Part shown: positions 4,700-52,001 of the stretch, piece by piece
How the letters are laid out: each line of letters opens with the position of its first letter
Numbering within the stretch: the first letter of the stretch is position 1
Origin: an uncultured bacterium
Lineage (GTDB): Bacteria; Arandabacterota; Arandabacteria; Arandabacterales; Arandabacteraceae
Direction of reading: 5' to 3'
Assembly: GCA_964356335.1 (NCBI GenBank)
Contig: CAYHHI010000013.1
Coordinates: 2,974-66,973, forward strand
Length of the DNA: 64,000 bases
Position numbers and translations under genes: made by a program
The notes under the pieces: model-generated
The model's database searches: none
Told to the model about the DNA's origin: nothing
The model's input: only the letters and a program-made list of their open reading frames with translations

Positions 4700-5695
4700 T
4701 CAATCTTGAATCTCCACGATTTCGATCTTCTCGAGATCACTGCACCCGACGCCTCTTCTGCCTGCAGTGAAAACATACTCCGCCCTGCGGCCTTGCTCGG
4801 CAAGAGAGGGAATCCCGGCTTCTCGCCTTTTCTTCTCGATGAGATCAAGGCATACGCGGTCAACTGCCACCGCATCAAGGCCAATGACAAGACCTTTGAA
4901 TTCCCACCGGTACTTTGATTTGTAGCCTGGGCCGCCGTTGTAAGCTCCGACAAGTCCGTCGACCACAGAGAGTCTATGCCTTTCTCTGATAACAGGTGCC
5001 TGGTACAGATCGGCAACATATGGATCACAACCGTTGGGATGATACTTGTTCGGATTGTGTATGACACCGTAGAAATTCTTCATGCACCCGGAAATGCCGG
5101 CAATCCCATGGTCTTTGAGGACCGCAAGGCTTATCACGGAATCACAGTGTTCGGTGAGGACCCTGCTAAACTTGGAGCCTACGGCGCCGGACTCCCTCAG
5201 GGAGCTCTCGTAGCCCATCCCTTCCGAGTCGGTGGCAAGACACTCGATATTTCCATCACGCTTGATTTGAAAACCCGCGCTTGCCATCTCGTGCTCACTC
5301 CGATCCCAGATGGTGACCCTGGCGCTCTCGATCTTGCTGACGATAAGGTCTGCAAGCCCATAGGCCACTTCCCTCCTGGTCGCGAGCGGTCTCCCTCCAA
5401 GGCAGTTGATCTTGATCCCAATCCGGCTTGAGCCACCGAGAATGGCCTTCAAGGGTTCCGCTGGCCTTGGATCCAAGAGCTCGCGGAGACCGGTTTCAAG
5501 CAACACGGAGACTCGCTGCGGGACAGGCTCGCCATCCCTGAGAACTCCGCTGTCTCGAGCTATGACAACTCTGGATTGGCCGGGCGGTTTGGTTTCACCT
5601 GCACGAAGGACTGAACTGAGCAGGCTCGCAGACAGGGGAAGGCCGACCGAAAGAGCGCCGAGCTCTTTGATGAACCGCCTTCTGGTTTTACCCAT
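4700..5695 (-). CDS. DUF362 domain protein with Tat signal peptide
   Basis: N-terminus MGKTRRRFIKELGALSVGLPLSASLLSSVL fits the RRxFxK Tat consensus followed by a hydrophobic region. The body matches DUF362 (IKINCLGG, LKDHGIAGISGCMKNFYGV, VVDGLVGAYNGGPG, GLDAVAVDRVCLDL). Confidence 0.7.
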   Translation of the reverse strand: MGKTRRRFIKELGALSVGLPLSASLLSSVLRAGETKPPGQSRVVIARDSGVLRDGEPVPQRVSVLLETGLRELLDPRPAEPLKAILGGSSRIGIKINCLGGRPLATRREVAYGLADLIVSKIESARVTIWDRSEHEMASAGFQIKRDGNIECLATDSEGMGYESSLRESGAVGSKFSRVLTEHCDSVISLAVLKDHGIAGISGCMKNFYGVIHNPNKYHPNGCDPYVADLYQAPVIRERHRLSVVDGLVGAYNGGPGYKSKYRWEFKGLVIGLDAVAVDRVCLDLIEKKRREAGIPSLAEQGRRAEYVFTAGRRGVGCSDLEKIEIVEIQD

Positions 5696-5753
5696 CTTTG
5701 TGGCCTCTTCCTCAATCTAAAAGATGGGTAAAGTCAATGTCAACAAAACAAGA

Positions 5754-5794
5754 GGGTTGTGCCCTCGCCGCGGGGAATCACGAAGGCACAACCC
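5754..5794 (-). terminator. Rho-independent terminator downstream of the sigma factor gene
   Basis: Perfect 10-bp inverted repeat GGGTTGTGCC (5754-5763) / GGCACAACCC (5785-5794) with a 21-nt loop. On the minus strand it is followed by UCUUGUUUUGUUG (rc of 5741-5753). It sits 12 nt past the stop codon at 5806. Confidence 0.55.
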
Positions 5795-5805
5795 GAGAGA
5801 GAAGG

Positions 5806-6759
5806 TCACATTCTTGTTACGAGTAGTCTCTGCATCCTCCTCTTTTTCATCAGCGTTCGCATTTTTTGAATTGCTCTCTTCTCGATCTGCCTGATTCGCT
5901 CGCGCGTTATCCCGACCATCTTACCTGTTTCGGCGAGCGACCTCAGGTTCCCGTCCTCAAGCCCGAAACGGTAGGCCAGTATCTGCCGTTCTCGCTCGGA
6001 GAGATCATTAAGAAGAGCATCAAGCCGCCTCGAATCTATCCTGCCGAGAGCGTCCTCATCGGGCGGCATGTTTGACTGGTCGGTAAGGACCTCATGGAGG
6101 CTGACCTCACCGTCAGGAGAGCATGGCGAATCAAGTGATACGGTGGACGCGGCATTCGTTATCTCGGCATATCTCACCGCAGAGATGCCTATGCGGCGGC
6201 ATACCTCGGTTTCACACGGCAGGGTGTTTCTCGTCTGTATAAGACTCTGCTCCATGACCCTGACCCTGCGCATGATGTCAATCACGTTCGCGGGCAATCT
6301 CACCGTTCTCGAGTCTGTTGCCAGCGCCTTTGTTATCGCCTGTCTTATCCACTTCGAGGCATAAGTGCTGAATCTGAAGCCCTTCTCATACTTGAAACGC
6401 TCGACAGCCTTTATGAGGCCGAGGTTGCCTTCGCCTATCAAATCAGTAAGCGGCAGGCCCATGCCCCGATATCTCCGTGCAATCGCCACCACAAGCCTCA
6501 GGTTGGCTCCGATCATCTTCTCCTTGGCCATCGGGTCCCCCCTTCTCACGCGCAAAGCGACAACCTGCTCTTCGCCTTTTGTGAAGAGAGGAATCCGGCT
6601 TATGGCTTTAAGGTAAAGAGCCAAGCTCTCCGCTGCCCATTCAGCACCGACACCTGGCGATCGCGTTAGCAAGGATTCATCCTCTGCTTGATATTGCCTC
6701 AGGGAGATCTCGGGATCCTCTTCGTCGATGAAGGGTCGGTCCAACATCGCCTCATCCAT
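5806..6759 (-). CDS. sigma-70 family RNA polymerase sigma factor (group 1/2, RpoS/RpoD-like, 317 aa)
   Basis: Regions 1.2 to 4 recognisable: LRLVVAIARRY, DLIGEGNLGLIKAVERFKYEKGFRFSTYASKWIRQAI, region 4 LSERERQILAYRFGL...ITRERIRQIEKRAIQKMR. Confidence 0.85.
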   Translation of the reverse strand: MDEAMLDRPFIDEEDPEISLRQYQAEDESLLTRSPGVGAEWAAESLALYLKAISRIPLFTKGEEQVVALRVRRGDPMAKEKMIGANLRLVVAIARRYRGMGLPLTDLIGEGNLGLIKAVERFKYEKGFRFSTYASKWIRQAITKALATDSRTVRLPANVIDIMRRVRVMEQSLIQTRNTLPCETEVCRRIGISAVRYAEITNAASTVSLDSPCSPDGEVSLHEVLTDQSNMPPDEDALGRIDSRRLDALLNDLSERERQILAYRFGLEDGNLRSLAETGKMVGITRERIRQIEKRAIQKMRTLMKKRRMQRLLVTRM

Positions 6760-6846
6760 CCTTCGGTGCCCACCCCTGGTTCTGGCCCCGCCTGGAGCCT
6801 CGACCTACAGGAGACGAGGGGCTCACCGTAGTCACTAAGGTAAACC

Positions 6847-6862
6847 GCAAGTTTTGTGCCGG
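6847..6862 (-). promoter_or_regulatory. sigma-54 (-24/-12) promoter candidate upstream of the sigma factor gene
   Basis: The minus strand reads cCGGCAC-aaaac-TTGC (forward GCAA 6847-6850, N5, GTGCC 6856-6860, GG 6861-6862), with GG-N10-GC spacing exact. It lies ~90 nt upstream of the ATG at 6759, in the 314-bp gap between the EBP gene and the sigma factor gene. Confidence 0.5.
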
Positions 6863-7073
6863 AACGTAACCCTGCACTGCAATTTCGTTGCAATCTATTT
6901 GGCTCTAAATCAACAGGTTACAAATGCTGCTCTCTCGAGATCGCAGAGTATGATGTGGGAATGATTCGTCTGTGTAACCGAACTTCACACGCAGATGGGC
7001 TGAAACGTGGAGATGTAGGAAAGACGGGACTTCGCGATGGGAACAAGAGTCACAGAACAGGTGTGAACTTACT

Positions 7074-10000
7074 TCACGGAACGATGCGGTAGCGTTGGAT
7101 TTTGTTGAGGAGCCCGCGCCTACTGAGGCCCAAGTTCCTGGCAACCTTGCTCTTGTTGCCGTTGAAACGATACAGCGCCTCCCTGATCATCTGCCTCTCG
7201 ATCTGTTCAACAGCTTCGACGAGGCCATGCCTACCGTCAGAGCCGACAATGCTTCCCCAGGTGCGCAGCTCATCAGATAAGAAAGCCGGTGTGATCGCCT
7301 CTCCGTCCTCAACGAAAGTGACCGCCCTCTCGACCTCGTGCTCGAGCTGCCTGACGTTGCCCGGCCACGAGTAACTCACGAGAAGGTCCATTGCAGAGGG
7401 AGCGAACCCCGCCACCGCCTTTTCCATCTCGCCGGTGTATTTCTCGAGGAAGTACTCGGCAAGAAGCGGTATGTCATCGCGCCTATCGCGGAGAGCCGGC
7501 AGCTTCAAGGATATGACCTTCAACCTGTAGTAGAGGTCTTCAAGAAATCTCTCGCCTTCCACTTCTTTGGCAAGATCCTTATTGGTTGCACATATCAGCC
7601 TGAAATCAGCCTTCTTCGAGACCGTTGACCCCATGGGCTTGAATTCTCGTTTGTCAACGACCTGGAGCAACCTGTCCTGGAATTTTCTGGAAGTCTTGTC
7701 TATCTCATCCAGGAAAACCGTACCGCCCTCCGCGGCTTCGAAAAGACCGGTTCTGTCGGCCCTTGCATCAGTAAAGGCACCCTTCACATGACCGAAGAGC
7801 TCACTCTCCACAATCTCAGTCGATAGTGCCGAGCAGTCAATCGTCACGAAGGGCCTACTGCACCTGTCTCCGCTCAGATGAATAGCCCTTGCAAGCATCT
7901 CCTTGCCGGTCCCCGTTTCACCCTCGACCAGGACCGTGGTTGATGTCTTTGCGAGGAACCTCACAGACTCGAGAATCTCCAGCATCTTCTTGTTCTGGCT
8001 GATGATCCCCTGGACGTGACAGGATGCCTCGAGCTTGCTCCTCAAGAACCTTGCCTCTTCCATGAACCTCGCCAGCTGCGCCTCGGAGAGCACGCTCTTC
8101 AAGATGCCGACTATGGCGACAACGAACTCGACGTCACTTCGGGTGAAGAAGTGATCCGCACAGTCGGTATCGAGGTATATGCAGCCTACCGTGTCGCCTC
8201 TCAGCGTAAGGGGAACGCACATCACGGCGCCCTGGAGGACTCCTGCCGTGGCCAGGCCGGCCAGCCGTTCATCTTTACCAATGTTCGCGCTGACAAGCGG
8301 CCTGTTCAAATCCTCTGCAATCCTGAGTATCGTCTCCACGGCCGGTACGGCTTGCGTACACTGCCGGGTCTCAAGATCCTTCGACGCGAGAGGTTCGAGC
8401 TTCCCATTGCGCCTGAGAAGGATCAGCCCCCTCTCAGCCGAAGTCCTGTCCACACAGGCGTCAAGCGCCAGCTGCAACTTACTCGCCTGGTCTCCGGCAC
8501 CGAGGATGCGAGCCATAATCACATTGAAGACTGACAGATCCCCGGAGTCACTCACCGACAGGCATGAAATCTGCTCATCCGCCTGCTTCTGAATGCTTTC
8601 GATATCATCAGCGAATATGCTGGGAATGTCACCGCCAAATATCTGCATCAGCTTGTCGAGATACTTGCGACACTGCTCTACGTCTCCCCGCACAGCCGCA
8701 ATCCTGCCTAAGGCCACAGCGGAGAGCCCAGCTTCATAAACCATCTCAAGCTCTTCAAAAATCCCCAACGCCTCGGTAAGATAACTCGCGGCAATGTCGC
8801 CGGAAGATGATTGGGTGGAAAGCAGCTGTCCCGCTCTCAGATAGGTCAACCCCAGCTCTTTCCTCTCCCCCAGGGAATAGAGCAAGTTTATCGACTTGGC
8901 GAAGGTCTCTCTAGCTTTTTCCCACTCTCCGAGTCCAAACTCTGCACAAGCCTTTGACCGCAGGGCACAACCCTGCTCGAAGACCTCCTTGAGGTCCACT
9001 GCCAGTCTATACGCCTCTCGAGCGAGCTCAAGGGCGGCAAGGTAATTCGTGCGAGCCGACTCGACGTCCGCAAGCCTTCGCTTGACCTCCACGACAACGT
9101 CGCCCTGGGGTGCGATCTCCTCGCCGATCTCAAGCGCCTGAAGGTAATGGCGATGAGCCGAATCGATCCGGCCGCACGCCATTTCCACGTCGCCCACATA
9201 TTCGAAGCTCAGCGCAGACCCGCGGGCATCACCGTTGTCGGAGCTTTCTTTCATCGCAAGCACATAGTATTGCTGGGCCCGCTCGACATCCCGGTAGGTA
9301 AGGTAGTAGTGGCCGAGAGCGAGATATACCGACACCAGCTCCCACCTGTTGCCGATCCTTGCAAGGACTTCCAAGGCCTCAGTCCAACACCTGTGGGCCT
9401 TCTTCCAGTACCCTCGCTTCGAGTAGATTATGCCGAGATTGGTGAGGCGCACACCTTTCTGAAGATGCTGCCCGACTTCCTCAGAGATCCGCAAGGCTTC
9501 CTCAAGATAGGCCTGAGACTCAGACCAAAGCCCGAGGTTCTTGCACGCAAGACCGAGGTTATTGAGGCACGTGCCTACCAGTTCCTTGTCATTGACGACC
9601 CGCGCCACCGACAAGGCGGACCGAAGGAACTCAAGGGCTCTCTCGGTGTCTCCCTTCCTGGCGTACACTCCGGCGAGGCAGTTATAAGTGTCGACCAGCT
9701 CTTTTCCCCTGCCCCCAGCAAGCATTATCTCCAGAGCTGATTCGCAATCTGCCTGGGAAAGATCGTACTCCCCTATCTTGAAATGCACCCATGCCCTCTC
9801 GCTAATTATGCGCGCGAGCTCGACCGTGTCTTCGCCCTCTGATACCAGCATGAAAGCCTTGTCCAGGAGCTCAAGGGCATGGTCGCACTTGCCAATCCGC
9901 ATATAGCAGATGGCCAATCTTCTGAGCAAAGAAGCTCGTCGAGGGTTGAGATCCTTGGAGTTGCCGGTTAGAGCCAGGAGCTTCGTAAAATAATCTATTG

Positions 10001-10157
10001 CAGTAGAGAATTCCCCACTGGCCAGACAGAAGTCACCGAGATCTTCAATCGATGCGGCTACGCCCTTCTGGCCTTCTCGTCCTTCATCTCTCTCTGTAGG
10101 CTCACCGCCGTGTGACTTGTCCATCTCACCCTTTCCCCGCTGATAAAAGGGTGACAA
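7074..10157 (-). CDS. sigma-54-dependent transcriptional activator (enhancer-binding protein) with N-terminal TPR repeats and a GAF domain
   Basis: 1027 aa: ~530 aa of TPR-like repeats, a GAF-like region (aa ~545-690), an AAA+ sigma-54 interaction domain (GETGTGKE, ESELFGHVKGAFTDA, GNVRQLEHEVERAV) and a C-terminal Fis-type HTH (KSKVARNLGLSRRGLLNKI). No receiver domain. Confidence 0.9.
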   Translation of the reverse strand: MSPFYQRGKGEMDKSHGGEPTERDEGREGQKGVAASIEDLGDFCLASGEFSTAIDYFTKLLALTGNSKDLNPRRASLLRRLAICYMRIGKCDHALELLDKAFMLVSEGEDTVELARIISERAWVHFKIGEYDLSQADCESALEIMLAGGRGKELVDTYNCLAGVYARKGDTERALEFLRSALSVARVVNDKELVGTCLNNLGLACKNLGLWSESQAYLEEALRISEEVGQHLQKGVRLTNLGIIYSKRGYWKKAHRCWTEALEVLARIGNRWELVSVYLALGHYYLTYRDVERAQQYYVLAMKESSDNGDARGSALSFEYVGDVEMACGRIDSAHRHYLQALEIGEEIAPQGDVVVEVKRRLADVESARTNYLAALELAREAYRLAVDLKEVFEQGCALRSKACAEFGLGEWEKARETFAKSINLLYSLGERKELGLTYLRAGQLLSTQSSSGDIAASYLTEALGIFEELEMVYEAGLSAVALGRIAAVRGDVEQCRKYLDKLMQIFGGDIPSIFADDIESIQKQADEQISCLSVSDSGDLSVFNVIMARILGAGDQASKLQLALDACVDRTSAERGLILLRRNGKLEPLASKDLETRQCTQAVPAVETILRIAEDLNRPLVSANIGKDERLAGLATAGVLQGAVMCVPLTLRGDTVGCIYLDTDCADHFFTRSDVEFVVAIVGILKSVLSEAQLARFMEEARFLRSKLEASCHVQGIISQNKKMLEILESVRFLAKTSTTVLVEGETGTGKEMLARAIHLSGDRCSRPFVTIDCSALSTEIVESELFGHVKGAFTDARADRTGLFEAAEGGTVFLDEIDKTSRKFQDRLLQVVDKREFKPMGSTVSKKADFRLICATNKDLAKEVEGERFLEDLYYRLKVISLKLPALRDRRDDIPLLAEYFLEKYTGEMEKAVAGFAPSAMDLLVSYSWPGNVRQLEHEVERAVTFVEDGEAITPAFLSDELRTWGSIVGSDGRHGLVEAVEQIERQMIREALYRFNGNKSKVARNLGLSRRGLLNKIQRYRIVP

Positions 10158-10173
10158 TCTGAGGCTACGCCAT

Positions 10174-10500
10174 CTATCTCCGGCCAGCGATCGGCTCGGA
10201 CACAGAAGGAAGCCTCTTCCCCTTAACCGTAGCGCTATTCCTGTACTCTTGCTGTCTCAAGTTCGTCTTGAATACGACGAGGTCAACCACGATTGATTTG
10301 ATGGACGAGATGGTCCCCGGATTGCTCGAAAACGTGGTCGCTGGTCTTGCCCTCTCCCAGATGTCCGGATCACCACCCATAGGGTGCTTCGGCCCTGCTA
10401 CCACCGCACTCGCCCAGACAAAGGCGAAGACGACAGCAAGAGATACAAGCCATATTGCCTTCATAAACCACCGCCTCCGGCTTGAATCCTCACGCTTCAA
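10174..10500 (-). CDS. hypothetical small secreted/membrane protein (108 aa)
   Basis: N-terminal hydrophobic segment (FMKAIWLVSLAVVFAFVWASAVVAG), no recognisable domain. Tightly packed between the dksA-like gene and the EBP gene, so operon context supports it. Confidence 0.4.
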   Translation of the reverse strand: MKREDSSRRRWFMKAIWLVSLAVVFAFVWASAVVAGPKHPMGGDPDIWERARPATTFSSNPGTISSIKSIVVDLVVFKTNLRQQEYRNSATVKGKRLPSVSEPIAGRR

Positions 10501-10524
10501 CTATAATCCATGCGCCCTTTTTTG

Positions 10525-11211
10525 TCAATCCTCAAAAAGGTCATCGGCAGACGGAAGCACAATCTTTCCGGTTGCTTCTTCCTTGGTCTTGCATTTCACG
10601 CAAAGCCTTGCCGAAGGCATAGCTTCAAGCCGCTTCACCCCAATCGGCTTGCCGCACCGCTCACATATGCCATAGGTTCCTTCCTTCAACTTCTCGAGAG
10701 CCGTAGCGATTTCCCTGAGAGCGTTGACACCGGCTTCACTATACTCAAAAGCCTTCTCTTTCTCGACGGAGGCCGAGACAAGATCGCCGACTTCGGCAAA
10801 GCTGGTACGGTCGATTTCCAAGCTATCAGCACGGGCACGCTTGATCTTCTCCAGAACCTCTGCTCCCTTGGTCTCAAGCATAGCCTTCAGCTTCTGTACT
10901 CTGGGTGAAACCACCCTGGCCCGGACCCGTGGCCTTCTGCTTGCGGCAGGGCCCACCCTCTTGGTTGGCGCCCCCCCTTTCCGCACAGTGGCGATCGCGG
11001 GCTTACGAGGCTTACGTCGCGCACCAGTCTTCGCCCCCGGTCTTCTGGGAGCTTTCCTAACGGCTTTCCGGGTAGGCTTCTTAGCCGCTTTCTTGCTGAT
11101 TTTCTTAGGAGTCTTCTTCCTGGCTTTCATCTTAGGTTTTCTCTCGCGCTTACCGGCCGGTCTACGAGTGCGTCCTCGCCGCCTTGCCTTGAGTGTCGTC
11201 CCAGAAGCCAT
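10525..11211 (-). CDS. DksA/TraR-family C4 zinc-finger protein with a ~110-aa lysine/arginine/proline/alanine-rich (histone H1-like) N-terminal tail
   Basis: C-terminal CERCGKPIGVKRLEAMPSARLCVKCK (Cx2C-x17-Cx2C) preceded by a coiled-coil-like region. The N-terminal 113 aa are KARRRGRTRRPAGKRERKPKMKARKKTPKKISKKAAKKPTRKAVRKAPRRPGAK... (>45% K/R). Confidence 0.75.
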   Translation of the reverse strand: MASGTTLKARRRGRTRRPAGKRERKPKMKARKKTPKKISKKAAKKPTRKAVRKAPRRPGAKTGARRKPRKPAIATVRKGGAPTKRVGPAASRRPRVRARVVSPRVQKLKAMLETKGAEVLEKIKRARADSLEIDRTSFAEVGDLVSASVEKEKAFEYSEAGVNALREIATALEKLKEGTYGICERCGKPIGVKRLEAMPSARLCVKCKTKEEATGKIVLPSADDLFED

Positions 11212-11527
11212 ATCCTCCTCAGCCTGTTACTGATCCCTAACTAGGATAGGCATAAGAGGCCTCTACCGCCCTCTGCCCCGCCGCCAACCCGGGGGTAAGC
11301 GGCCAATCCTCCTGCCAAAAACATTGTTAGGATTATCACCATCTTGCTCGGCCCAGTCAAGTGCATTGTCAAGCCCATGGAAATCTCGGCTGTCCCAACT
11401 GCCGAGACCCGGTGGAGAAGAACAACCGGGGAGGCCGTCGCGAGAATCGCTGCCCCACGAGCAATCTGCCGAGCAGCCGCCGAACCGCTTCCATCATAGG
11501 GTGCGATCTCGGGTCATTGACGCCCCG

Positions 11528-13796: not shown

Positions 13797-15848
13797 TCAG
13801 AGCCTACCGAGGACCGCATAAGCTATACCCGAAGCATACGAATTGATTCGCTTGAGATCGCTGATCACGTCAAGATAGACAGTGCTTGTCTCAACCACTT
13901 CTTCCCTGCTTCCCCTGAGAAGCGACAGATGCTCCTTGTGGAGCTGCCGCTCGAGAATATTCATCTCTGACTTGCGCTCGACAACTTCCTCGGCAAGTTT
14001 CCTGTCCTGGGAAGCAAACGAGTCGATCGCCATCTGGAATGTCTTTTCGATCTCGCCGTGGTATTCCCTGATGCGCTGAAGCGCTTCCTTTGAGAATCGC
14101 GGCGATACCATTATCTTCTTCAGGGCCAGATCCATCAGGCTTTTCGAGACTATGTCGCCGATCAGCTCGAGATTCTTTACAGTGAAGAGAAGAGAAACTG
14201 CCCGCTGGGCCTCTTCCTCAGACATCTCCTTGCCCGAAACCTCAGTGAGATAGGGAGTGATAGATTCCTCGAGCATGTCAATCTTGTCATCCTCCTCGAT
14301 CAGTCTCTCTCTAAGAACCTCATTATCATTGAGGAAGACATCGATGGACTTTGAGAAGACACCATAGGTGATGTCAGCCATCCTGAGGGTCTCGCGAGTC
14401 GCTTGGCCTAAGGCGAGTGATGGAGTGTCGAGCACGCGCTGGTCCAGGTATGCGGGCTTGAAGACCTCGACGTCCACCTCCTCCTCTTTGACCAGGAACC
14501 TGAAAAGGCGCCCCCAAGGGGTCATGAACGGAATGAAGAAGAGAGCAGCACCGATGTTGAAAAGGCTGTGGGCATTGGCGATCTGGCGCGTCAAGCTCGG
14601 GGCGGTCGAGGCAACGAAGTTTGTGAATGGCTTAAGGAAAGGAAAGATCAGGATCACTCCGACGATCTTGAAGAAGGTGTGTGCCCACGCGATTCTTTTT
14701 CCCTCGGCATTGCTGTTCACGCTTGCCATCAGCGCAGTCGCGCATGTGCCTAGGTTCGCCCCGAGCACGAGTGGTATGGCGCTCTTCAGGCTTATCACGC
14801 CCTCAAACGCCAGAATCAGCACGAGTCCTATGGTTGCAGCGCTTCCATGGATCAGCGCCGTGAACAATGCTGAGATCACTATGGCAAGCACCGGATTACG
14901 CTCGACGCCAAGCATGAAGTGGACGAAAGCGGGATGGTCCTTGGCGGGTTCGACGGCTGATGACATGATCGTCATGCCGAAGAAAAGCAGGCCGAAGCCC
15001 ATGATTATCTGGCCGAACCTTGAATAGCGTTCGATCTTCGATGAGAAGAGAACAAAACCAAGGGCAACGACCAGGAGTGCATAATCGAAGAGCCTGAAGG
15101 CAATCAGCTGAACTGTCAGAGTTGTGCCGATGTCCGCGCCGAGGATCACGCCGAGCGCCTGCTTAAGCCCGATGATGCCGGCGTTGGCGAAACTTACGAG
15201 CATTGCGGTTGTCGCACTGCTGCTCTGGATTATGACAGTGATGATCACTCCAGTTACGAGTCCCATGAACCTGTTTGAGGTAAGTCTGATCACCGTGTCC
15301 CGCAGTTTCTTACCCGCAGCCTTCTGGAGACCGCGCCCTCCAAATCTGATTCCAAACAGGAAGATGGCAAGCCCGCCGCTTATACCCACGAGCATGAAGA
15401 CGAGCCAGTGCTGCCTGTAGGCCTTGACGGTGAAAACCAGAGGGTTCCCCTGGTGAGATTGCGGCGAGCAGACGACATGGAACACTCCGTTGCGCGAGCC
15501 GAAGACGAGCGAAGTGGAGGCGTTGCCGTCGGAACCTGTCACAACAAGGGGCGTGTCAAGCGTTGGGAAACCCGAGACCATCTCAAGCCTCGTGCTGGCC
15601 TCAATCACCCTGAATTCGACTGTAACGCCGCTCGCGCTCTGGCCCTGCTCGTCCGTAACGTGGACTCTCAAGGGCCGGTGGAGATACTCCCCCGCCAGGC
15701 CGATCTGGCCGTTATTCGAGATGTCTTCCCCATCCATCCCCTTGGCAAAATCGATATGAACCAGGGCTGCGGGAAGGCATGGCGCCGCAGGAAGCCCGAG
15801 GAGTACGAAAACCAAGAGGCCCTGCAAAACCTGTTTTGTCAGTTTCAT
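13797..15848 (-). CDS. Na/Pi-cotransporter II-related protein with C-terminal PhoU-like domains and an extra N-terminal secreted Ig-like/beta-sandwich domain
   Basis: 683 aa: a signal peptide, ~130 aa of beta-rich region (VTVEFRVIEASTRLEMVSG...VFHVVCSP), the NptA-type membrane core (repeated GANLGTC/GADIGTT-like motifs) and PhoU-like helical repeats at the C-terminus. Confidence 0.75.
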   Translation of the reverse strand: MKLTKQVLQGLLVFVLLGLPAAPCLPAALVHIDFAKGMDGEDISNNGQIGLAGEYLHRPLRVHVTDEQGQSASGVTVEFRVIEASTRLEMVSGFPTLDTPLVVTGSDGNASTSLVFGSRNGVFHVVCSPQSHQGNPLVFTVKAYRQHWLVFMLVGISGGLAIFLFGIRFGGRGLQKAAGKKLRDTVIRLTSNRFMGLVTGVIITVIIQSSSATTAMLVSFANAGIIGLKQALGVILGADIGTTLTVQLIAFRLFDYALLVVALGFVLFSSKIERYSRFGQIIMGFGLLFFGMTIMSSAVEPAKDHPAFVHFMLGVERNPVLAIVISALFTALIHGSAATIGLVLILAFEGVISLKSAIPLVLGANLGTCATALMASVNSNAEGKRIAWAHTFFKIVGVILIFPFLKPFTNFVASTAPSLTRQIANAHSLFNIGAALFFIPFMTPWGRLFRFLVKEEEVDVEVFKPAYLDQRVLDTPSLALGQATRETLRMADITYGVFSKSIDVFLNDNEVLRERLIEEDDKIDMLEESITPYLTEVSGKEMSEEEAQRAVSLLFTVKNLELIGDIVSKSLMDLALKKIMVSPRFSKEALQRIREYHGEIEKTFQMAIDSFASQDRKLAEEVVERKSEMNILERQLHKEHLSLLRGSREEVVETSTVYLDVISDLKRINSYASGIAYAVLGRL

Positions 15849-15947: not shown

Positions 15948-15962
15948 GCAAACTTAGTGCCG
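15948..15962 (-). promoter_or_regulatory. sigma-54 (-24/-12) promoter candidate upstream of the Ig-NptA-PhoU transporter gene
   Basis: The minus strand reads cGGCAC-taagt-TTGCa (forward GCAA 15948-15951, N5, GTGCC 15957-15961), ~100 nt upstream of the ATG at 15848, in a lower-GC divergent intergenic region. Confidence 0.45.
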
Positions 15963-33285: not shown

Positions 33286-36200
33286 TTAGAAGCGGATGAG
33301 GACGGAAACGCTCAGACCAATGGTTCTCCAGGTCTGTTCGAGCTTGCGGTCGGTGGTCTGCTCGAAGCGTGCATCGGCGGAGCCTGTGACGCTGGTGCTG
33401 AAGCTATAGCTTGCTTTGGGACTGATGGTAAATGTCCTCGTGCTGCTGTCTATCCTGTTCTTGAACGAAGGTGTGGTGCCCACACGTGACTCGAAGGACA
33501 AGTCCAGAGATACTGTGAGGCTGCTCTTGAACTTCAATGTCCTGCCAGCGAGCGGGATGTACATGCCTTCCGGAGCGCTGAAGGAATGTCTCAGCGAGAA
33601 GTTAGCGGAATTTGAGACGAACTTCTTCTCGCTTCCAGTACCCTTAGTGTCCTCAGTGGTGTTACTGCTACGCCGGAGATTGAAGGTCGTCCGCACACCG
33701 TTCTTCCACGTTGCATCCCAGCCGATGACCGGCAGCCACTCCGACCGGTGCCCGCGATTGGTCTCTGTGGCACCCACGCCACTCGCCTGCCTCGACCGCT
33801 TGTAGCCCACCGTGATCGAGGAAGTCTTTACGGCTCCCCTGAAAAGCGGCAGATAGACCGTCGAAGAGATGTTGCCGGCAACATCAGGCCAGACGGTTTG
33901 CCTGTCAAAGGTTGTCGCACCGGCATAGGTCCTCGTTTTCTTGTCATGCTTGTACTTGGTGGTCAGGGAAACTGTCTCGACAGGCTTGAATTCCGTGGAA
34001 ACGTCGTAGCCGTCATTCCTCGTGATCTCATCAGTGGGCAGTCCGGCTCCGCCTGACGTTCCTGCGCCCGAGGGCCTCAGGATAGCGTCCTTATCCACCT
34101 GAGGATCTATTCCGAGTTGAAACCTCAAACCCGGCCGTTTCATAAGCTTGTTGTATCTGGAGCTTCTGTCAACGAAGTAGCCGACATCGATATCTGGAAT
34201 CATGGCAAGGACTCGCCTGTAAATGGGCACTCCGGTTGTATCGGCTCCCTTTTGCGGGGCAGACAAGAACGAAGAAGGCTGAAGCAGGAGATCAATGCTC
34301 GACCTGCTTGAGACGGATGCTCGTCTGACCCCTGGCGGATCATTCGCCGAGCGCACGGAAGGATCGGAATTCTCATCATAGTTGACGTCATAACTCACGG
34401 ATGGTTTGAGTATCTTGCCTATGGTAGGCCTCAGGGTGGCACCCGCTCTCTGGTTCCGATTGAGTTCCCATCCCAGACCGACGCTTGACAGTATCGGCAC
34501 CTGCTTGTTTTGATCGAGGTCCCGCATGGTCTTCAGGCTGTAGTCAGTCTCCAGCGAAGGACCGGTGAGAGGTTTGACCGAAATGGCAAAGTTACCTCTG
34601 ATCTCCCTCGTGTACTGGTTTTTCTTCATAATCTTCTGGCGCTTGTCGAACTCCTTTTCGGTCTTTGTCCAACCGGAAACGGCGAAATCCATACCTTCAG
34701 GAAAATAGGATATTGCATAGCCCCTGTAGATTCTCAGTGAATGGTTCCACCAGGGCTTGAAGGCGTAAGCAAGATTCCCATTGTAGCCGTTTGAGGCGGC
34801 ATCCGACTCGGGTGACTTTCCCTGCCTGCGTGCAAAGGACACCCTTCCGGAAAGGGCGTCGAAGGTAAGCTTCATGAGCAGGTTGTTCGATTTCTGCCTC
34901 CGAGAGAAGGCCAGACTGTAGTTGTTATCGACCGACGTTCGCTCCTCTTTTTTTCGCTGCTGCGGCGTCGTAAGAGCGACATCGGACCGGCTGCTCAGAG
35001 TGGGCAACGACCGGGCAGTGTGATAACCCACCGAGAACGGCAGGGACATCCCGAGTGGGGGAAGGAATCTGTCAAGTGAGGTGGATCCTGATAGGGAGAG
35101 ATCGGTATCATCAGATCCTCTTCTGGTGCCCCCGAGGTTCTGAAATTCGGTGTCGGTCTGCTTGAGATCGGCACTGACGCTCATCACATCCGACAAGGCC
35201 GCCCCCACCGAGATTCGCTTTGCAACCCCCATCTCACGGCGCACATCAGTCAGTCTCAGATCATCAAACCAGACTTCAACCGCAGTGTCGCTCGTTGGAG
35301 CTGTCCCGCGGTTCACCACACCCGCGCCGATCCGCGATACCCTCGTTATGGAAGGCTCACCATAGACTGCGATCCAGGTGGCTTCAGTCAGGGGCCTCTC
35401 CCTCCTCAAAACCGGCTTGCCATAGAGGGTGACCGTCGTCGTATCCATGCTTGTCTTGAGGTTGGTTATCTCATCAAGCTTCAACCGGACGTCACTCCAG
35501 CCAGGGGTCACCTTCATGCCGTATTCGTAGAAGTTGATACTGTCCGCACCTATCCTCAGGAAGAAGCTCAGATCTTCAGCGGATGCATTCGGGTCGCCAT
35601 GGACATAAAACGCGAGGGTATGGTAGAGGGTGTAGTCACCGGCATTTCCCGGCAAGGTCTTGTAAACCGACCCGCAGTTTCCCGCTTCGAGGTTCCGGAG
35701 GCCGAATACCAGCGACTGCTCCCGCTTCTTGTAGCCCTCAGGATCTGTACCGGGATCATAGGGTGGATCATAACTCGGGTCATCTCGCGTGTTCTTGGCT
35801 GATATTTCAAAGGACTCTCGGGGAAGCCGCTCGACGCGGGCCATGTCTTCCTTCCTGCGTATTCCCTCCTCGAGCCAACTCGCGCCCGAGATTTGCAGGT
35901 AGGCTAGCTGGAAGACTGAAGGTGTATCGACGCCGGTGAAGAAGAAGCGGACATATCTTATTGATTTCCAGCTGGGCGAGCCGCCGAGCGCGTCCGCATC
36001 GGCCAAAGGAATCATGTAGTGGCACCAATCCCCCGAACGCCCCACAATGTAAGTGGTGTCGGAGAGGTCAAAACCTAGTCTAAAGAGGACCTCGTCTTTG
36101 TCGAGGTTCCCATTACCGTCAATGTCTTCGGTATCGGGTACCAAATTGGGGTCGCCCTCGGTGCCGTTTATGTGGGAGTAGTCTCCTTCACTGTAAGACC

Positions 36201-38940
36201 AGTTGTCCTCATACTCCACCTGGTCGTCGCCTGGCTGGCCATCGGGTATGCCGTCAAGTCCCGTGTTCTCGTCTTCACTCAGCTTGCCGTCACTATCCTT
36301 GTCCTCGGTGTTAAGCGTGTCGGCCCAGGGATGGTAGAAGTTCTCGCTCACGGCACCAAGGTCAACGTACATCTTCCCCCTGTGGCCCTCCTTCTTCCTG
36401 AGCCAGACTTCGAGAAACCTGAGATCCGAGTAATCGCTTCCGGTCTTTGACACAAGCCGCTCAAGCCCCGACCACTGCTTGGCTGTGTCAGGATCCGGAG
36501 CAACCCAGCCATATGCGAACTTCCTGAAGTTGATTTCAAGAACCGGAATGAAGGCTTCCCCTGGACGGGACTCCGCCTCTGGGAAGAGATCCTGCTCCTT
36601 GACTTCCCTGTCCTTGACGTACCACCAGATCTTGCGGTTGTCCCTGTAGTAGAAATCTGTCGGGGGACTTGCGGGCACCCAGGCTTCCCGGATCAGCGAA
36701 AAAGACCTCAAGTCCCTCACTCCTTCCATATCATCTATGTAGACATCACGCTTGGTATTGGGATTGGGAAAACTTGCCGCCACTTCGGCTGAGATTGACA
36801 GTCTTGAGGGGCTTTGTGCCTGGACCATGGGAAGCGCATTGGTGATCGCGGTCATCCACTTCGGCTGGAATTCCAGCCGCGTATTGACGTCGCCGACCAT
36901 GATCTGAGAAGGTTCCTGGCCCAGCCTGGGCCGTTCCTCGGGGGATTTCTTGCTCTGGTAGATCCAGGCCGTACTCAAGTAGGACTGTTCCGAGAACTTG
37001 TAGGTGCCCTGGATGCCCAAAAGAGATTGCTGGGCTAAAGCGAGGAAGGGCACATATTGGTAATCTACGGTTATCTGTGCATCGGGACTCGCCGCTTCGT
37101 CGATCTTGAATCTTATCTGCCCCACGTCATAATAGATCTCATAGTCAACATTGCGCGTGAGCCGCCTTCCGTTGAGCGTTACGGTCTCGCTTCCCTCAAG
37201 GATATTGACATTGTTCAACTTGAATATGGTCTGCGGGGTGGAGAACCAGACCACCATATAGTACTTGCTGTTCTCGGGCTTGAGCTTCCTGGGATGAATG
37301 TCGTAAATATCGGGGTTTCCATCATCGAGAGTCTCCGGTCTGGCATCCATCAGCTGTATGTCGGGATCGAAGGGCCTGAGGTCTGGAAACAGGAGCAGCC
37401 CCAGCTCGCCGTTTACGGTTCCGCCGTCGGCATACCCGTCCGTGCGCCAGCCGTTTGCCGGGCTCGCTTTCACATTGCTCTCATCCTCAAGGTCTATCCC
37501 GAGAACCTTCGAATACTCATACTGCCGCTGGACGTCCTTGACATCTCCGCCCGGGTCCTTGCGGTAAATCTTCACCAAGACCTTCCCCTCGGAGACGTAG
37601 CTCGCGCCGAGCGAATAGACGTTCTTGCGCTCATACCTGAGGGTACCGCCCCAGAGTCCCTCCTTTTCTATCATGTCCGTCTCGGTCGGGCGTATCATCT
37701 TCAGCAAGCGCACGTTCTTGTCACCATACCCACCATACCCGCCCACCACCATGTCGCCCCACTTGTAAGTGACAGCCAGCGTATGCGCGGCATCGAGGGC
37801 TCTGAGGAGCGAGATCTCACCGGTACGCTGGTCTATCGCATAGTCTCTGTTACGCTCAAGGATGTCGAAGAAGCCGTGATAGGTCGAGTCCGCCCAGCCG
37901 GCGGAATCCGATGGCACCCTGTCAGGATCAAGCAAAGCATAAGCCTCGACCGCACCCTCACCGATGTTGTTATTGCCGTTGCCGTCATCCAGGTAAACTT
38001 CGACCTCGGTGACTTCAGGGCAGGGCTCGGGCGCAATCTTGCGGCAGTATTCAAGCCTCTCATAGGGATCAATCATGAAGAAGTATTTGTTCTTGACAAA
38101 GTCCATGTCTGAGAGTCTTACCGAATCTCGCTCAGCCGCTCCCACGAATCGCGCCCCGGCAGTTCTGCCTTCCTGCTTGCTGGCGATCACGGTCATATCC
38201 ATGGCCCCTAGCTTAGCAAGCACCTTGGCTCCGAAAAGACCCTGGTGCTGTTCGCTGTAGCCCACAAACTGGGAACCCGGCATGGACAGGTTGGTATTAC
38301 CCATTTCCACACTCTGCACGATCTCGTCGTCATCGCCCTTGTAATTGAGCTTTATGCGGTTCTCAAGGGGTGTTTCGACATCGCTATCGTGATGAACCAG
38401 TACGTTTATTTTCTCGCCCACGGTTCCCTTGAGGTCTATCCTGAGATGCTGCTTCATATTGAGCTGAGGAAACTTAGATGGTCTTCCGTATTCGGTCAAA
38501 GGTTGATTTACCCTGTATCTTGTCTGGCCGCCGAAGGTGATCTGTTCGCTGCCGGTGACGCTCAAGTTTGCTCCCTGCCCGATCACTCGGCCTATGGTCT
38601 TGGGGAACTTGACCGGTATGTCTATGCTGCTGAAGTCTCGAAGGGACATCGCATGTTCCTCAAAGACCCTGCCCGAGCCGGCTTTGATCCAATTCTCCCT
38701 GAGAGCGCCGTTGAAATCCTGCTCAAGCACCGGCTTCTGCATGAATTCGGGGAAGGCGAACCGCGGGCCGAGATTTGTACCGCTCGAAGGAAACCTGAGC
38801 GAGACTTCCGATGTGGGGCCGGCCGAGAGGCTGTCAGAGGACGTTCCGAAGCCAAGGGAGTCAGCGCCCTCGGAGACGCTTACGTATCCGAAGACCAGAA
38901 GCCCAAAGATTATGGCCCAGTAACCATCATGTGCTCTCAT
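33286..38940 (-). CDS. giant (1884 aa) secreted outer-membrane protein with Asp-rich Ca-binding-like repeats and a C-terminal beta-barrel; possibly SprA/Sov-like (T9SS translocon family), unverified
   Basis: Signal peptide MRAHDGYWAIIFGLLVFGYVSVSEGA; Asp/Gly-rich segment DKDSDGKLSEDENTGLDGIPDGQPGDDQ...DIDGNGNLDKDE; alternating beta-strand-like C-terminal ~600 aa ending ...GLSVSVLIRF (terminal Phe, OMP signature). One uninterrupted ORF. Confidence 0.8.
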   Translation of the reverse strand: MRAHDGYWAIIFGLLVFGYVSVSEGADSLGFGTSSDSLSAGPTSEVSLRFPSSGTNLGPRFAFPEFMQKPVLEQDFNGALRENWIKAGSGRVFEEHAMSLRDFSSIDIPVKFPKTIGRVIGQGANLSVTGSEQITFGGQTRYRVNQPLTEYGRPSKFPQLNMKQHLRIDLKGTVGEKINVLVHHDSDVETPLENRIKLNYKGDDDEIVQSVEMGNTNLSMPGSQFVGYSEQHQGLFGAKVLAKLGAMDMTVIASKQEGRTAGARFVGAAERDSVRLSDMDFVKNKYFFMIDPYERLEYCRKIAPEPCPEVTEVEVYLDDGNGNNNIGEGAVEAYALLDPDRVPSDSAGWADSTYHGFFDILERNRDYAIDQRTGEISLLRALDAAHTLAVTYKWGDMVVGGYGGYGDKNVRLLKMIRPTETDMIEKEGLWGGTLRYERKNVYSLGASYVSEGKVLVKIYRKDPGGDVKDVQRQYEYSKVLGIDLEDESNVKASPANGWRTDGYADGGTVNGELGLLLFPDLRPFDPDIQLMDARPETLDDGNPDIYDIHPRKLKPENSKYYMVVWFSTPQTIFKLNNVNILEGSETVTLNGRRLTRNVDYEIYYDVGQIRFKIDEAASPDAQITVDYQYVPFLALAQQSLLGIQGTYKFSEQSYLSTAWIYQSKKSPEERPRLGQEPSQIMVGDVNTRLEFQPKWMTAITNALPMVQAQSPSRLSISAEVAASFPNPNTKRDVYIDDMEGVRDLRSFSLIREAWVPASPPTDFYYRDNRKIWWYVKDREVKEQDLFPEAESRPGEAFIPVLEINFRKFAYGWVAPDPDTAKQWSGLERLVSKTGSDYSDLRFLEVWLRKKEGHRGKMYVDLGAVSENFYHPWADTLNTEDKDSDGKLSEDENTGLDGIPDGQPGDDQVEYEDNWSYSEGDYSHINGTEGDPNLVPDTEDIDGNGNLDKDEVLFRLGFDLSDTTYIVGRSGDWCHYMIPLADADALGGSPSWKSIRYVRFFFTGVDTPSVFQLAYLQISGASWLEEGIRRKEDMARVERLPRESFEISAKNTRDDPSYDPPYDPGTDPEGYKKREQSLVFGLRNLEAGNCGSVYKTLPGNAGDYTLYHTLAFYVHGDPNASAEDLSFFLRIGADSINFYEYGMKVTPGWSDVRLKLDEITNLKTSMDTTTVTLYGKPVLRRERPLTEATWIAVYGEPSITRVSRIGAGVVNRGTAPTSDTAVEVWFDDLRLTDVRREMGVAKRISVGAALSDVMSVSADLKQTDTEFQNLGGTRRGSDDTDLSLSGSTSLDRFLPPLGMSLPFSVGYHTARSLPTLSSRSDVALTTPQQRKKEERTSVDNNYSLAFSRRQKSNNLLMKLTFDALSGRVSFARRQGKSPESDAASNGYNGNLAYAFKPWWNHSLRIYRGYAISYFPEGMDFAVSGWTKTEKEFDKRQKIMKKNQYTREIRGNFAISVKPLTGPSLETDYSLKTMRDLDQNKQVPILSSVGLGWELNRNQRAGATLRPTIGKILKPSVSYDVNYDENSDPSVRSANDPPGVRRASVSSRSSIDLLLQPSSFLSAPQKGADTTGVPIYRRVLAMIPDIDVGYFVDRSSRYNKLMKRPGLRFQLGIDPQVDKDAILRPSGAGTSGGAGLPTDEITRNDGYDVSTEFKPVETVSLTTKYKHDKKTRTYAGATTFDRQTVWPDVAGNISSTVYLPLFRGAVKTSSITVGYKRSRQASGVGATETNRGHRSEWLPVIGWDATWKNGVRTTFNLRRSSNTTEDTKGTGSEKKFVSNSANFSLRHSFSAPEGMYIPLAGRTLKFKSSLTVSLDLSFESRVGTTPSFKNRIDSSTRTFTISPKASYSFSTSVTGSADARFEQTTDRKLEQTWRTIGLSVSVLIRF

Positions 38941-38989: not shown

Positions 38990-39004
38990 GCAACTTTTGT
39001 GCCA
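38990..39004 (-). promoter_or_regulatory. sigma-54 (-24/-12) promoter upstream of the giant OMP gene
   Basis: The minus strand reads TGGCAC-aaaag-TTGC, a perfect consensus (forward GCAA 38990-38993, N5, GTGCCA 38999-39004), ~50 nt upstream of the ATG at 38940. It shares 13/14 nt (GCAAnTTTTGTGCC) with the site at 6847-6860. Confidence 0.55.
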
Positions 39005-50582: not shown

Positions 50583-52001
50583 CTAGTAGTGCTTCCTCAT
50601 CCTTGCAGGGAATATTGCAAGCAGGTCTCTGTACTTGGCGACCGTGCGGCGGGCCACGTAGAAACCTTCCCGCTTGAGAATCTCGCCAATCTCCTGATCG
50701 CTCAGGGGCTTATCTTTGTCTTCCTTGTCTATCAGTTCCTGGATTATCGCTCTGATCTTTTTCGAGGAGGCCACATCCCCACTCTCTGTCCTCAAGCCTG
50801 TCGAGAAGAAGTACTTGAGTTCGAACACGCCCCTGGGCGTCTGAACGTACTTGCTGCTAGTCACTCGGCTCACAGTGGACTCATGCATCCCCACTCTTTC
50901 GGCTATCTGCTGGAGAGTGAGGGGCCTGAGGTGCTCGACCCCTTTTTCCAAGAAGTCCATCTGAACCTCAAGGATGGCTTCCATTACCTTGACCATGGTT
51001 CTTCTCCGTTGGTCGATCGTCCTTATGAGCCATCTTGCCGAATTGAGCTTGTCAACAACGTAGTCATGGTCCTGTTTGTTTCTACCACCGGAATTGGAAA
51101 GAATATCCCTATAGGCACGATTGATTCTCAAGCGAGGAACATTCCGGTCGTTAAGCTGAACCACATAGCGATCTTCAACCTTCTCGACGATGAGGTCAGG
51201 CAGGATATACCTTGGCTCCTCAGTTGCATATCTTGTGCCCGGGCGAGGATCGAACCTCGCGACAACCTCGGCAGCGGCCTGCACCTCCTTGATAGTCTTC
51301 TTGACCTTCCTTGCGATGTCCGGGTACCGCCGCTGAAGCAGATCGTCAAGATACTCTCTCACCAGGGTTGCCGCCAGCGTGTCCGCAAGACCGGCTTGCT
51401 CCAGCTGCATGAGCAAACACTCCTTGAGATCCCGTGCCCCGACGCCGGGTGGATCAAATGTCTTGATCAGGGCAACTACCTTCGCGGCGTCGTTCTCCTC
51501 AATCGAAAGCAGTTTGGCGATCTCCTCCGCCGAAACCGTGAGGAAGCCGTTTGCGTCCAGGCTGCCGATTATGAACTCGCCTATCCGACGCTCTTCCTCC
51601 GACGCGGTCGCCATTCTGAGCTGGGATAACAGGTATTCTTCCAGGGTTGGCCTCGCCGCCGGCACCTTATCCTGGAATTCCTCCTGTTCTTCCATCTCAC
51701 CAGAGGAGCGTGCACCCATCTCAAAACCGTCCTTGAGGTAGCGGTCCCAGTCTATACTCTCCTCACTGGTCTTCAGCTCCCCCTCATCCTCACCCTCCGG
51801 CACCTCCTCGGCAGGCTCATCCTGGGCTTCGTCATCGACCTCGTCGACTTCTTCCAACATAGGATTGATCATCAGCTCGCACTTTAGTATCTGCTGGAGT
51901 TCAAGCGCCGGTACCTGGAGGAGCTTTATCGCTTGCTGCAGCTTGGGAGTCATCACCAGTCTCTGGCTCAACTCAGGTCTCATTTCCTGTCTCATGTCCA
52001 T
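50583..52001 (-). CDS. rpoN: RNA polymerase sigma-54 factor
   Basis: N-terminal Gln/Leu-rich region I, a core-binding domain and a C-terminal RpoN box (ARRTVAKYR). Confidence 0.95.
   Translation of the reverse strand: MDMRQEMRPELSQRLVMTPKLQQAIKLLQVPALELQQILKCELMINPMLEEVDEVDDEAQDEPAEEVPEGEDEGELKTSEESIDWDRYLKDGFEMGARSSGEMEEQEEFQDKVPAARPTLEEYLLSQLRMATASEEERRIGEFIIGSLDANGFLTVSAEEIAKLLSIEENDAAKVVALIKTFDPPGVGARDLKECLLMQLEQAGLADTLAATLVREYLDDLLQRRYPDIARKVKKTIKEVQAAAEVVARFDPRPGTRYATEEPRYILPDLIVEKVEDRYVVQLNDRNVPRLRINRAYRDILSNSGGRNKQDHDYVVDKLNSARWLIRTIDQRRRTMVKVMEAILEVQMDFLEKGVEHLRPLTLQQIAERVGMHESTVSRVTSSKYVQTPRGVFELKYFFSTGLRTESGDVASSKKIRAIIQELIDKEDKDKPLSDQEIGEILKREGFYVARRTVAKYRDLLAIFPARMRKHY

Follow-up and report, generated by a model that had tools for sequence, protein, structure and literature searches.

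The locus

The window, that is, the whole stretch of 64,000 nucleotides (64 kb) of contig CAYHHI010000013.1 analysed here, carries on its minus strand a gene for a sigma-54 enhancer-binding protein (EBP) and, directly downstream, a gene for a sigma-70-family factor. The spacer between them contains a predicted sigma-54 promoter facing the sigma gene, preceded by putative upstream activating sequences (UAS). The features on which the argument depends are listed below, with site centres counted from the predicted transcription start and alignment columns taken from the spacer alignment A1 described in the next section.

5806-6759, minus strand: sigma-70-family gene, 317 aa, with Sigma70 regions 1.2, 2, 3 and 4
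6760-7073: EBP-sigma spacer, 314 bp
6835, minus strand: predicted transcription start (G), 12 nt past the C of the -12 GC, giving a 5' untranslated region (5' UTR) of 76 nt
6847-6860, minus strand: predicted sigma-54 (-24/-12) promoter core GGCACaaaacTTGC, an exact match to GGCAC-N5-TTGC
6907-6922, minus strand: element C, TGTAACCtgTTGATTT (also given as TGTAACCnnTTGATTT), conserved A1 columns including invariant A162 and T169
6973-6989, minus strand: UAS-B, TGTGAAgttcgGTTACA, centre at -146, putative main EBP site
7038-7054, minus strand: UAS-A', TGTGACtcttgTTCCCA (ortholog consensus TGTAACCCTnnTTCCCA), centre at about -211, putative weaker EBP site
7062-7078, minus strand: UAS-A, cGTGAAgtaagTTCACA, overlapping the EBP stop codon, centre at about -235, one mismatch, putative EBP site
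7074-10124, minus strand: EBP gene, 1016 aa from ATG 10124
50583-52001, minus strand: rpoN, the sigma-54 gene, with the Sigma54_AID, Sigma54_CBD and Sigma54_DBD domains all found

Checked on the sequence, the coordinates of the original prediction are all correct apart from the start of the EBP; the 317-aa sigma gene, its 314-bp distance from the EBP gene and the position of rpoN with its three domains were all verified. The open reading frame (ORF) of the EBP does span 7074-10157 and encodes 1027 aa from a TTG codon, as had been reported, but the true start is likely to be the ATG at 10124, because the NCBI protein P0134, which is 100% identical, has 1016 aa and the orthologs have 1015-1018 aa.

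The -24/-12 element and its conservation

The promoter match cCGGCACaaaacTTGCg lies on the minus strand 87 nt before the sigma ATG, with its GG at 6860-6859 and its GC at 6848-6847, which confirms the earlier report of a -24/-12 match oriented toward the sigma gene at a distance of about 90 nt. The 16-mer cGGCACaaaacTTGCg at 6846-6861 (minus strand) has two mismatches to TGGCAC-N5-TTGCW, one at each end: a C replaces the T in front of the GG, and a G follows the GC where the consensus has A or T. Its GG-N10-GC spacing is exact. The transcription start at 6835 is predicted from the standard geometry of sigma-54 promoters. A search of the window with the 16-mer consensus, allowing at most two mismatches, returned 23 matches where 28 were expected; this is chance level, and the relaxed scan is therefore unusable as evidence. 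The exact core GGCAC-N5-TTGC occurs three times against an expectation of 0.65, and each of the three lies between genes and faces the one downstream of it. As a match in a single genome, the promoter is suggestive and constitutes weak evidence; its significance comes from conservation across the loci of the family.

The closest named relatives of the window are entries called 'Candidatus Eisenbacteria bacterium', and their loci are referred to as Eisenbacteria-type. Eighteen loci whose sigma orthologs are 57-100% identical to that of the window were fetched with flanks of 6-8 kb, together with four further loci (L021-L024) from a tier of 43-52% sigma identity, several members of which come from metagenome-assembled genomes (MAGs) named Gemmatimonadetes. 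The resulting 22 family loci comprise 21 different sequences and L006, which duplicates the contig of the window; loci L004 and L005, outside the family, served as controls. The anatomy and orientation of the cis elements and of the gene pair can be read directly in these loci. The order EBP then sigma is kept in 22/22, down to a sigma identity of 43%, and every EBP-sigma spacer (250 to 640 bp throughout) contains one GGCA[CT]-N5-[TC]TGC on the sigma strand, again in 22/22. Lack of conservation of the GG/GC motif in orthologous loci had been named beforehand as grounds for refutation, and the motif passes this test. The expectation for this relaxed pattern is about 0.01 per spacer of 300-600 nt on one strand. 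Elsewhere in 220 kb of fetched loci it occurs in ten places, counting both strands, and in the controls it is not found directly upstream of the sigma gene, the nearest same-strand match in L004 being about 1.4 kb upstream. Information content over the 21 distinct sites is 2.0 bits each for GGCA and TGC and 0 to 0.7 bits for the flanking positions, and the N5 is variable. In a MAFFT alignment of 15 spacers (A1), the mean column identity is 47%, and the invariant columns are the GGCA and TGC of the -24/-12 element and a few positions in three upstream blocks.

The most distant loci follow the same plan. The sigma factors of the Gemmatimonadota-type loci are 43-45% identical to that of the window, and a sigma-54 EBP gene lies directly upstream of sigma in all four of L021-L024, as a full TPR-plus-AAA+ gene in L021 and L023 (with a GAF match listed for L021) and as a truncated 3' end in L022 and L024. 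RecD2 is encoded downstream of sigma in L021-L023. The -24/-12 site reads TGGCAC-N5-CTGCA in L021-L023 and GGGCAC-N5-CTGCG in L024, lies about 110 nt upstream of the likely true sigma start codon in L021 and L022, and is preceded by TGTGAA-N5-type palindromes in 4/4. The sigma matches of 43-52% identity had been considered as paralogs or possible primary sigma factors; this was rejected, and they are taken as orthologs in other lineages because their loci share the EBP-sigma-RecD2 layout, the promoter and the UAS.

Two further cores in the window concern other genes. An exact core aTGGCACaaaagTTGCc at 38990-39003 (minus strand), a perfect TGGCAC-N5-TTGC, precedes by about 50 nt the gene for a 1884-aa SprA-like protein (33286-38940), within a divergent intergenic region common to an LptF/LptG gene, and suggests that this type-IX secretion component may be under sigma-54 control. 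The core cGGCACtaagtTTGCa at 15948-15961 (minus strand) is separated by about 100 nt from the downstream gene for a 683-aa Na/Pi-cotransporter-PhoU fusion protein (13797-15848).

Candidate enhancer sites

The pattern TGTRAA-N5-KTYACA, with at most one mismatch, has three matches in the window, all of them in the spacer, against 0.88 expected, and in the fetched loci this palindrome pattern occurs in the EBP-sigma spacer only. UAS-B is the sole exact match in the window and holds the invariant A1 columns A96, A97 and T104; UAS-A' holds the invariant columns G28, A31 and T38; and in UAS-A the block GTTCACA is conserved in A1, with orthologous sites at -218 to -235. Measured from the predicted start, site centres cluster at -146 to -148 in nine loci and, for the most part, at -201 to -255; such distances are within the classic range of EBPs.

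The original prediction had pointed to an inverted repeat, GGTTACA...TGTAACC, as a possible EBP site. Both halves are present (GGTTACA at 6979-6973 and TGTAACC at 6922-6916), but they are parts of UAS-B and of element C, respectively; the 17-bp palindrome TGTGAA-N5-GTTACA has GGTTACA as its right half. The alignment, the pattern scan and the site distances led to rejection of a single long inverted repeat in favour of separate 17-bp palindromes. The reverse complement of element C, AATCAAcaggTTA (6908-6920, plus strand), fits the consensus of integration host factor (IHF), WATCAANNNNTTR, when read by eye, and element C may be either a site for a DNA-bending, IHF-like protein or a fourth EBP half-site. 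A tblastn search with Escherichia coli IhfA gave no match to an IHF/HU gene in the window or the loci, so that gene content lends no support to the IHF reading of element C.

The enhancer-binding protein

The EBP consists of a TPR array (residues ~30-520), a GAF domain (~560-690), an AAA+ sigma-54 interaction domain, an AAA lid and a Fis-type helix-turn-helix (HTH). The Pfam matches are Sigma54_activat (PF00158; 6.8e-61), TPR_12 (5.2e-40), GAF (4e-7), HTH_8 (3.5e-13) and AAA_lid; the same search found no receiver domain, as had been noticed from the translation. Walker A (GETGTGKE) and Walker B (VFLDEI) motifs are both present, and the loop that contacts sigma-54 reads GAFTDA in 9/9 orthologs inspected. 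The recognition helix of the Fis-type HTH, LG[LI]SRRGLLNKIxRY, is invariant across the family loci in both Eisenbacteria-type and Gemmatimonadota-type EBPs, which fits the conservation of the palindromic site.

The C-terminal two-thirds of the protein align best to the solved structures of ZraR, NifA and NtrC1; for the N-terminal part the matches are protein-binding TPR scaffolds, namely LGN and the kinesin-light-chain TPRs. The closest solved chain to reach into the GAF region is that of NifA (9qq6_C, EBP residues 613-1011). The score of the NifA model (TIGR01817) is 311.5 bits, below its cut-off of 528.85, and no nif genes were found in any locus with gene calls. The sensor region (TPR plus GAF) is lineage-restricted, with 164 database proteins at E<=0.001 and about 45 full-length orthologs, and is only about 28% identical between the EBP of the window and the Gemmatimonadota-type EBPs. 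The combination of TPR and GAF is a new sensor architecture among EBPs.

The sigma-70-family factor

By its domains the 317-aa protein would be a group 2 (RpoD-like) sigma factor in the broad sense, with regions 1.2 to 4.2, no region 1.1 in the Pfam search, and the residues that read -35/-10 promoters kept (TRERIRQIE, IRQAIT). Its best family models are rpoS_proteo and RpoD, all below cut-off: rpoS_proteo (TIGR02394) scores 252.7 bits against 378.7 and PRK05657 scores 236.2 against 394, so that it falls short of RpoS, while the Firmicutes RpoD model scores 252.9 against 572 and another RpoD model 232.7 against 354. The closest solved structures are Firmicutes SigA, followed by HrdB, SigB and RpoS. 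A HMMER search of 1.84 billion cluster representatives returned a continuum of sigma matches at 35-53% identity.

The feature that sets the family apart is in region 2.3, where the usual FSTYATWWIRQ reads FSTYASKWIRQ (S-K-W instead of T-W-W; STYASKWIRQ at sigma residues 131-140, window 6350-6380, minus strand), so that lysine replaces the first residue of the tryptophan pair. In group-1/2 sigma factors this pair stabilises the upstream edge of the transcription bubble, and it is kept in every solved group-1/2 sigma aligned. S-K-W is present in 120/120 top homologs; among the 150 closest 50%-identity cluster representatives, K-W occurs in 7 and x-W-W in 134. Within Eisenbacteria the orthologs are 57-79% identical, and their N-terminal 44 aa are variable. 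The lack of region 1.1, the fast divergence of the orthologs and the predicted activator dependence of the promoter together suggest that these proteins form a specialised clade of their own and are not housekeeping sigma factors.

Neighbouring genes and transcription units

The surroundings of the gene pair include the following features.

4700-5695, minus strand: DUF362 gene, flanked by the sigma and radical-SAM genes, with a twin-arginine-like signal sequence
5743-5714, minus strand: TTGACA-18-TAGATT site, past the hairpin and before the next gene (consensus scan only)
5752-5766, minus strand: terminator-like hairpin and T-run after the sigma gene (consensus scan only)
6810-6824, minus strand: 5'-UTR block GAGCCCCTCGTCTCC, conserved in most Eisenbacteria-type loci
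10174-10464, minus strand: gene for a small exported protein of ~97 aa, with a signal peptide and then the motif AGPK..P..GDPDI.E..RP
10500-10528, minus strand: near-consensus sigma-70-type promoter TTGACA-N17-TATAGT, overlapping the DksA-like stop codon (read from sequence)
10525-11211, minus strand: DksA-like gene (zf-dskA_traR), first of the locus in minus-strand order

Eisenbacteria-type loci with enough flank have in common the order DksA-like gene, small ORF (except in L014), EBP, sigma and radical-SAM gene, and most extend upstream to TrkH and downstream to MoeA, RecD2 and UvrA. In minus-strand order the next gene after DUF362 is an AmmeMemoRadiSam radical-SAM gene; a DUF362 gene at this position is peculiar to the window, the sigma gene being followed directly by the radical-SAM gene in the other loci with gene calls. 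The DksA-like gene is syntenic with the cassette in Eisenbacteria-type loci of sufficient length, and its product is extended at the N-terminus by about 100 aa with a high content of Lys, Arg, Pro and Ala, reminiscent of a histone H1 tail. The small ORF (96-100 aa) is called upstream of the EBP gene in 8/9 distinct Eisenbacteria-type loci with gene calls, L014 being the one without it (alignment A5), and the Gemmatimonadota-type loci have three small ORFs in its place. The small exported protein has no Pfam match. Its gene is likely to be co-transcribed with the EBP gene directly downstream, and the protein could be a signalling partner of the EBP.

The TTGACA-N17-TATAGT promoter is found about 60 nt upstream of the small ORF in six of the eight orthologous loci checked (L012 and L016-L020), with a TTGACG variant, seen by eye, in L015; its conservation implies that the lineage uses canonical -35/-10 promoters. 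A consensus scan of the EBP-sigma spacer found no sigma-70-type site on the sigma strand. Downstream of the sigma gene, the terminator-like hairpin followed by a new TTGACA-18-TAGATT site suggests that the sigma gene is monocistronic. The simplest reading of this arrangement is that the activator would be made constitutively and that the sigma gene would form a monocistronic, activator-dependent unit.

In the sigma leader, RNAalifold on 12 orthologous leaders gave no consensus structure, single-sequence folds were inconsistent, and Rfam had no match at E<=1 across 5700-11400; an RNA element in the 5' UTR was therefore rejected. The conserved block at 6810-6824 could be an anti-Shine-Dalgarno sequence or a binding site, and hints at a further post-transcriptional layer.

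Proposed cascade and alternative explanations

The interpretation that fits these data best, and that is held with considerable confidence, is a dedicated, locally encoded two-sigma cascade in which the EBP would act at a sigma-54 promoter to produce the sigma-70-family factor. The original prediction had proposed this cascade, and phylogenetic footprinting in the 22 loci supports it: the -24/-12 element, the palindromes at fixed distances and the recognition helix of the EBP are all conserved, and rpoN is in the window. In the model, the operon of the small ORF and the EBP gene is transcribed from the conserved sigma-70-type promoter, and because this promoter is conserved and near-consensus the activator is probably always present. 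An EBP oligomer would bind through its Fis-type HTH at two to four TGTGAA-N5-KTYACA sites located ~80 to 235 bp upstream of the sigma-54 promoter. If NifA, NorR and FhlA are a guide, the GAF domain, together with the TPR array of ~500 aa, would hold the AAA+ ATPase in the off state until a small-molecule or protein signal frees it. The active ATPase would then contact the sigma-54 holoenzyme at 6847-6860 through the GAFTDA loop and open the promoter, possibly assisted by a bend at element C, and transcription from about position 6835 would yield a monocistronic mRNA for the 317-aa sigma factor. This factor, acting as an alternative sigma, would probably redirect RNA polymerase to a regulon of stress or physiological-state genes with promoters of the -35/-10 type.

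Several observations weigh against this interpretation. The UAS pattern is degenerate in L011, L014 and L018. The GAFTDA loop departs from the canonical GAFTGA; the variant is among the natural ones that Kazakov et al. expected to keep activation, and DVU2106 is a GAFTDA protein with an assigned regulon (PMC4641369), but for VfmH, which also has GAFTDA, interaction with sigma-54 was not detected and the effect of the Gly-to-Asp change was called unknown (PMC10714721). The consensus scan found no terminator between the EBP and sigma genes in the window, so that some read-through, or basal expression from the sigma-70-type promoter, is possible. Finally, the 317-aa protein may itself be the primary (housekeeping) sigma factor, a short form without region 1.1 like the sigma-A of Bacteroidetes, with the sigma-54 promoter serving to boost or control the main sigma of the cell. 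This alternative is considered unlikely. In its favour, the lineage appears to belong to the Fibrobacteres-Chlorobi-Bacteroidetes (FCB) group, judging from the SprA-like type-IX secretion gene and from relatives named Eisenbacteria or Gemmatimonadetes, and the primary sigma of Bacteroidetes has ~290 aa and no region 1.1; the JGI and PGAP pipelines name family members 'primary sigma factor' or 'RpoD/SigA', though such names are automatic; the -35/-10 reading residues are kept and near-consensus TTGACA/TATAGT promoters occur at the locus; and the 64-kb window shows no second group-1/2 sigma, although it is too small to exclude a separate rpoD. On the other hand, the first Trp of the pair found as x-W-W in 134/150 nearest representatives is Lys throughout the clade, all RpoD models are far under their cut-offs, at 43-45% identity the Gemmatimonadota-type orthologs fall within the 35-53% range of unrelated sigma-70-family representatives, a divergence not expected of a primary sigma, and a housekeeping gene whose sole conserved promoter needs an activator would be unprecedented.

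The remaining alternatives concern the spacer. Most sigma transcripts might arise by read-through from the sigma-70-type promoter or from a promoter that escaped recognition, with the -24/-12 block and the palindromes serving autoregulation of the EBP or termination. EBPs are sometimes autoregulated, UAS-A overlaps the EBP stop codon, and no terminator-like site separates the two genes in the window; yet the invariant positions are those that sigma-54 reads, with exact GG-N10-GC spacing on the right strand in 22/22 loci, the enhancer-type sites stand at canonical upstream distances, and spacers of 250 to 640 bp are kept throughout. In addition, L021 has a strong GC-rich hairpin and then a T-rich tract (7449-7486) directly after the EBP gene and still keeps its -24/-12 site. 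Read-through as the main source of the sigma transcript is thus very improbable. That the -24/-12 match arose by chance in a GC-rich spacer could be argued from the 23 matches against 28 expected for the 16-mer and from the outermost bases of the site, which are off consensus, but its retention in 22/22 loci of two named lineages, while spacer column identity averages 47%, effectively refutes this possibility, which has almost no probability left.

Comparison with known systems and significance

The two-sigma cascade proposed here is very probably real and of a kind already known. In Borrelia burgdorferi, the Rrp2-RpoN-RpoS pathway has one alternative sigma factor controlling another, and an AAA+ EBP is required (PMC3037356, PMC2940757). 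The likeness is that a sigma-54 promoter lies directly upstream of an RpoS/RpoD-like gene of the sigma-70 family. Rrp2, however, is a response regulator with a receiver, activated by phosphorylation, whereas the EBP of the window has TPR and GAF domains and no receiver; the sigma factor of the window is not an RpoS ortholog (252.7 against 378.7 bits; S-K-W against T-W-W); and its EBP gene is adjacent, with two to four conserved putative upstream sites. Activation of rpoS in Borrelia is reported to be enhancer-independent and to need BosR. Thus, of the earlier statement that the locus mirrors the Borrelia cascade, the circuit logic stands and the orthology of EBP and sigma falls, there being no receiver and the RpoS cut-off being missed.

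In Pseudomonas syringae and Erwinia, the receiver-less EBPs HrpR and HrpS activate the sigma-54 promoter of the gene for HrpL, a sigma-70-family factor that then drives a regulon (PMC3105312). That system differs in that HrpL is an extracytoplasmic-function (ECF, group 4) sigma factor, in that HrpR and HrpS are without a sensor domain and are controlled by HrpV and HrpG, and in that it belongs to a virulence island of Proteobacteria, whereas the window has a chromosomal, syntenic cassette of Eisenbacteria and Gemmatimonadota-type lineages. The window cascade would therefore be analogous to, and not homologous with, Rrp2-RpoN-RpoS or HrpRS-HrpL. With NifA-type systems it shares the GAF-AAA+-Fis-HTH core, the palindromic TGT...ACA upstream sites and an IHF-like element between sites and promoter, but its EBP has an extra N-terminal TPR array of ~520 aa and the GAFTDA loop, its palindrome is TGT-N11-ACA (17 bp) instead of the TGT-N10-ACA of NifA, and its target is a sigma gene, not nif genes. 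Sigma-54 also stands upstream of another sigma gene in the FleQ/FlrA-sigma-54-FliA hierarchy of Vibrio, Pseudomonas and Legionella and at the P6 promoter of E. coli rpoH; FliA and RpoH are group-3 sigma factors in flagellar and heat-shock regulons, whereas neither the window nor the loci with gene calls show a flagellar or heat-shock context. A literature search on sigma-factor regulation in Eisenbacteria or Gemmatimonadetes found nothing relevant, and none of the papers searched describes the cassette.

All studied cascades in which sigma-54 controls another sigma factor are master switches; examples are host adaptation in Borrelia, type-III secretion in Pseudomonas and the flagellar hierarchies. 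The locus adds a complete and, by computation, well-defined example (sensor-activator, putative binding sites, promoter and target sigma) from lineages in which genetics is scarce or absent. As a regulatory module it is clean and can be tested, but it does not amount to a new principle; there is an upside if the sigma factor is the primary one. The boldest version, in which the S-K-W protein is the sole RpoD-like, housekeeping sigma of both Eisenbacteria and Gemmatimonadota-type genomes, gated by sigma-54 and a TPR-GAF sensor, is a long shot; such wiring of a primary sigma is not known from any bacterium, and if true it could explain the rigid retention of the gene pair. A milder version is more likely, in which the cassette would be an undescribed master switch common to both lineages and the Trp-to-Lys change of the new sigma clade would alter promoter melting. 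The module offers an entry point to global regulation in abundant soil and sediment bacteria, its cis elements could be tested in a heterologous host, and if cultured Gemmatimonas strains carry the cassette, it would be directly testable there.

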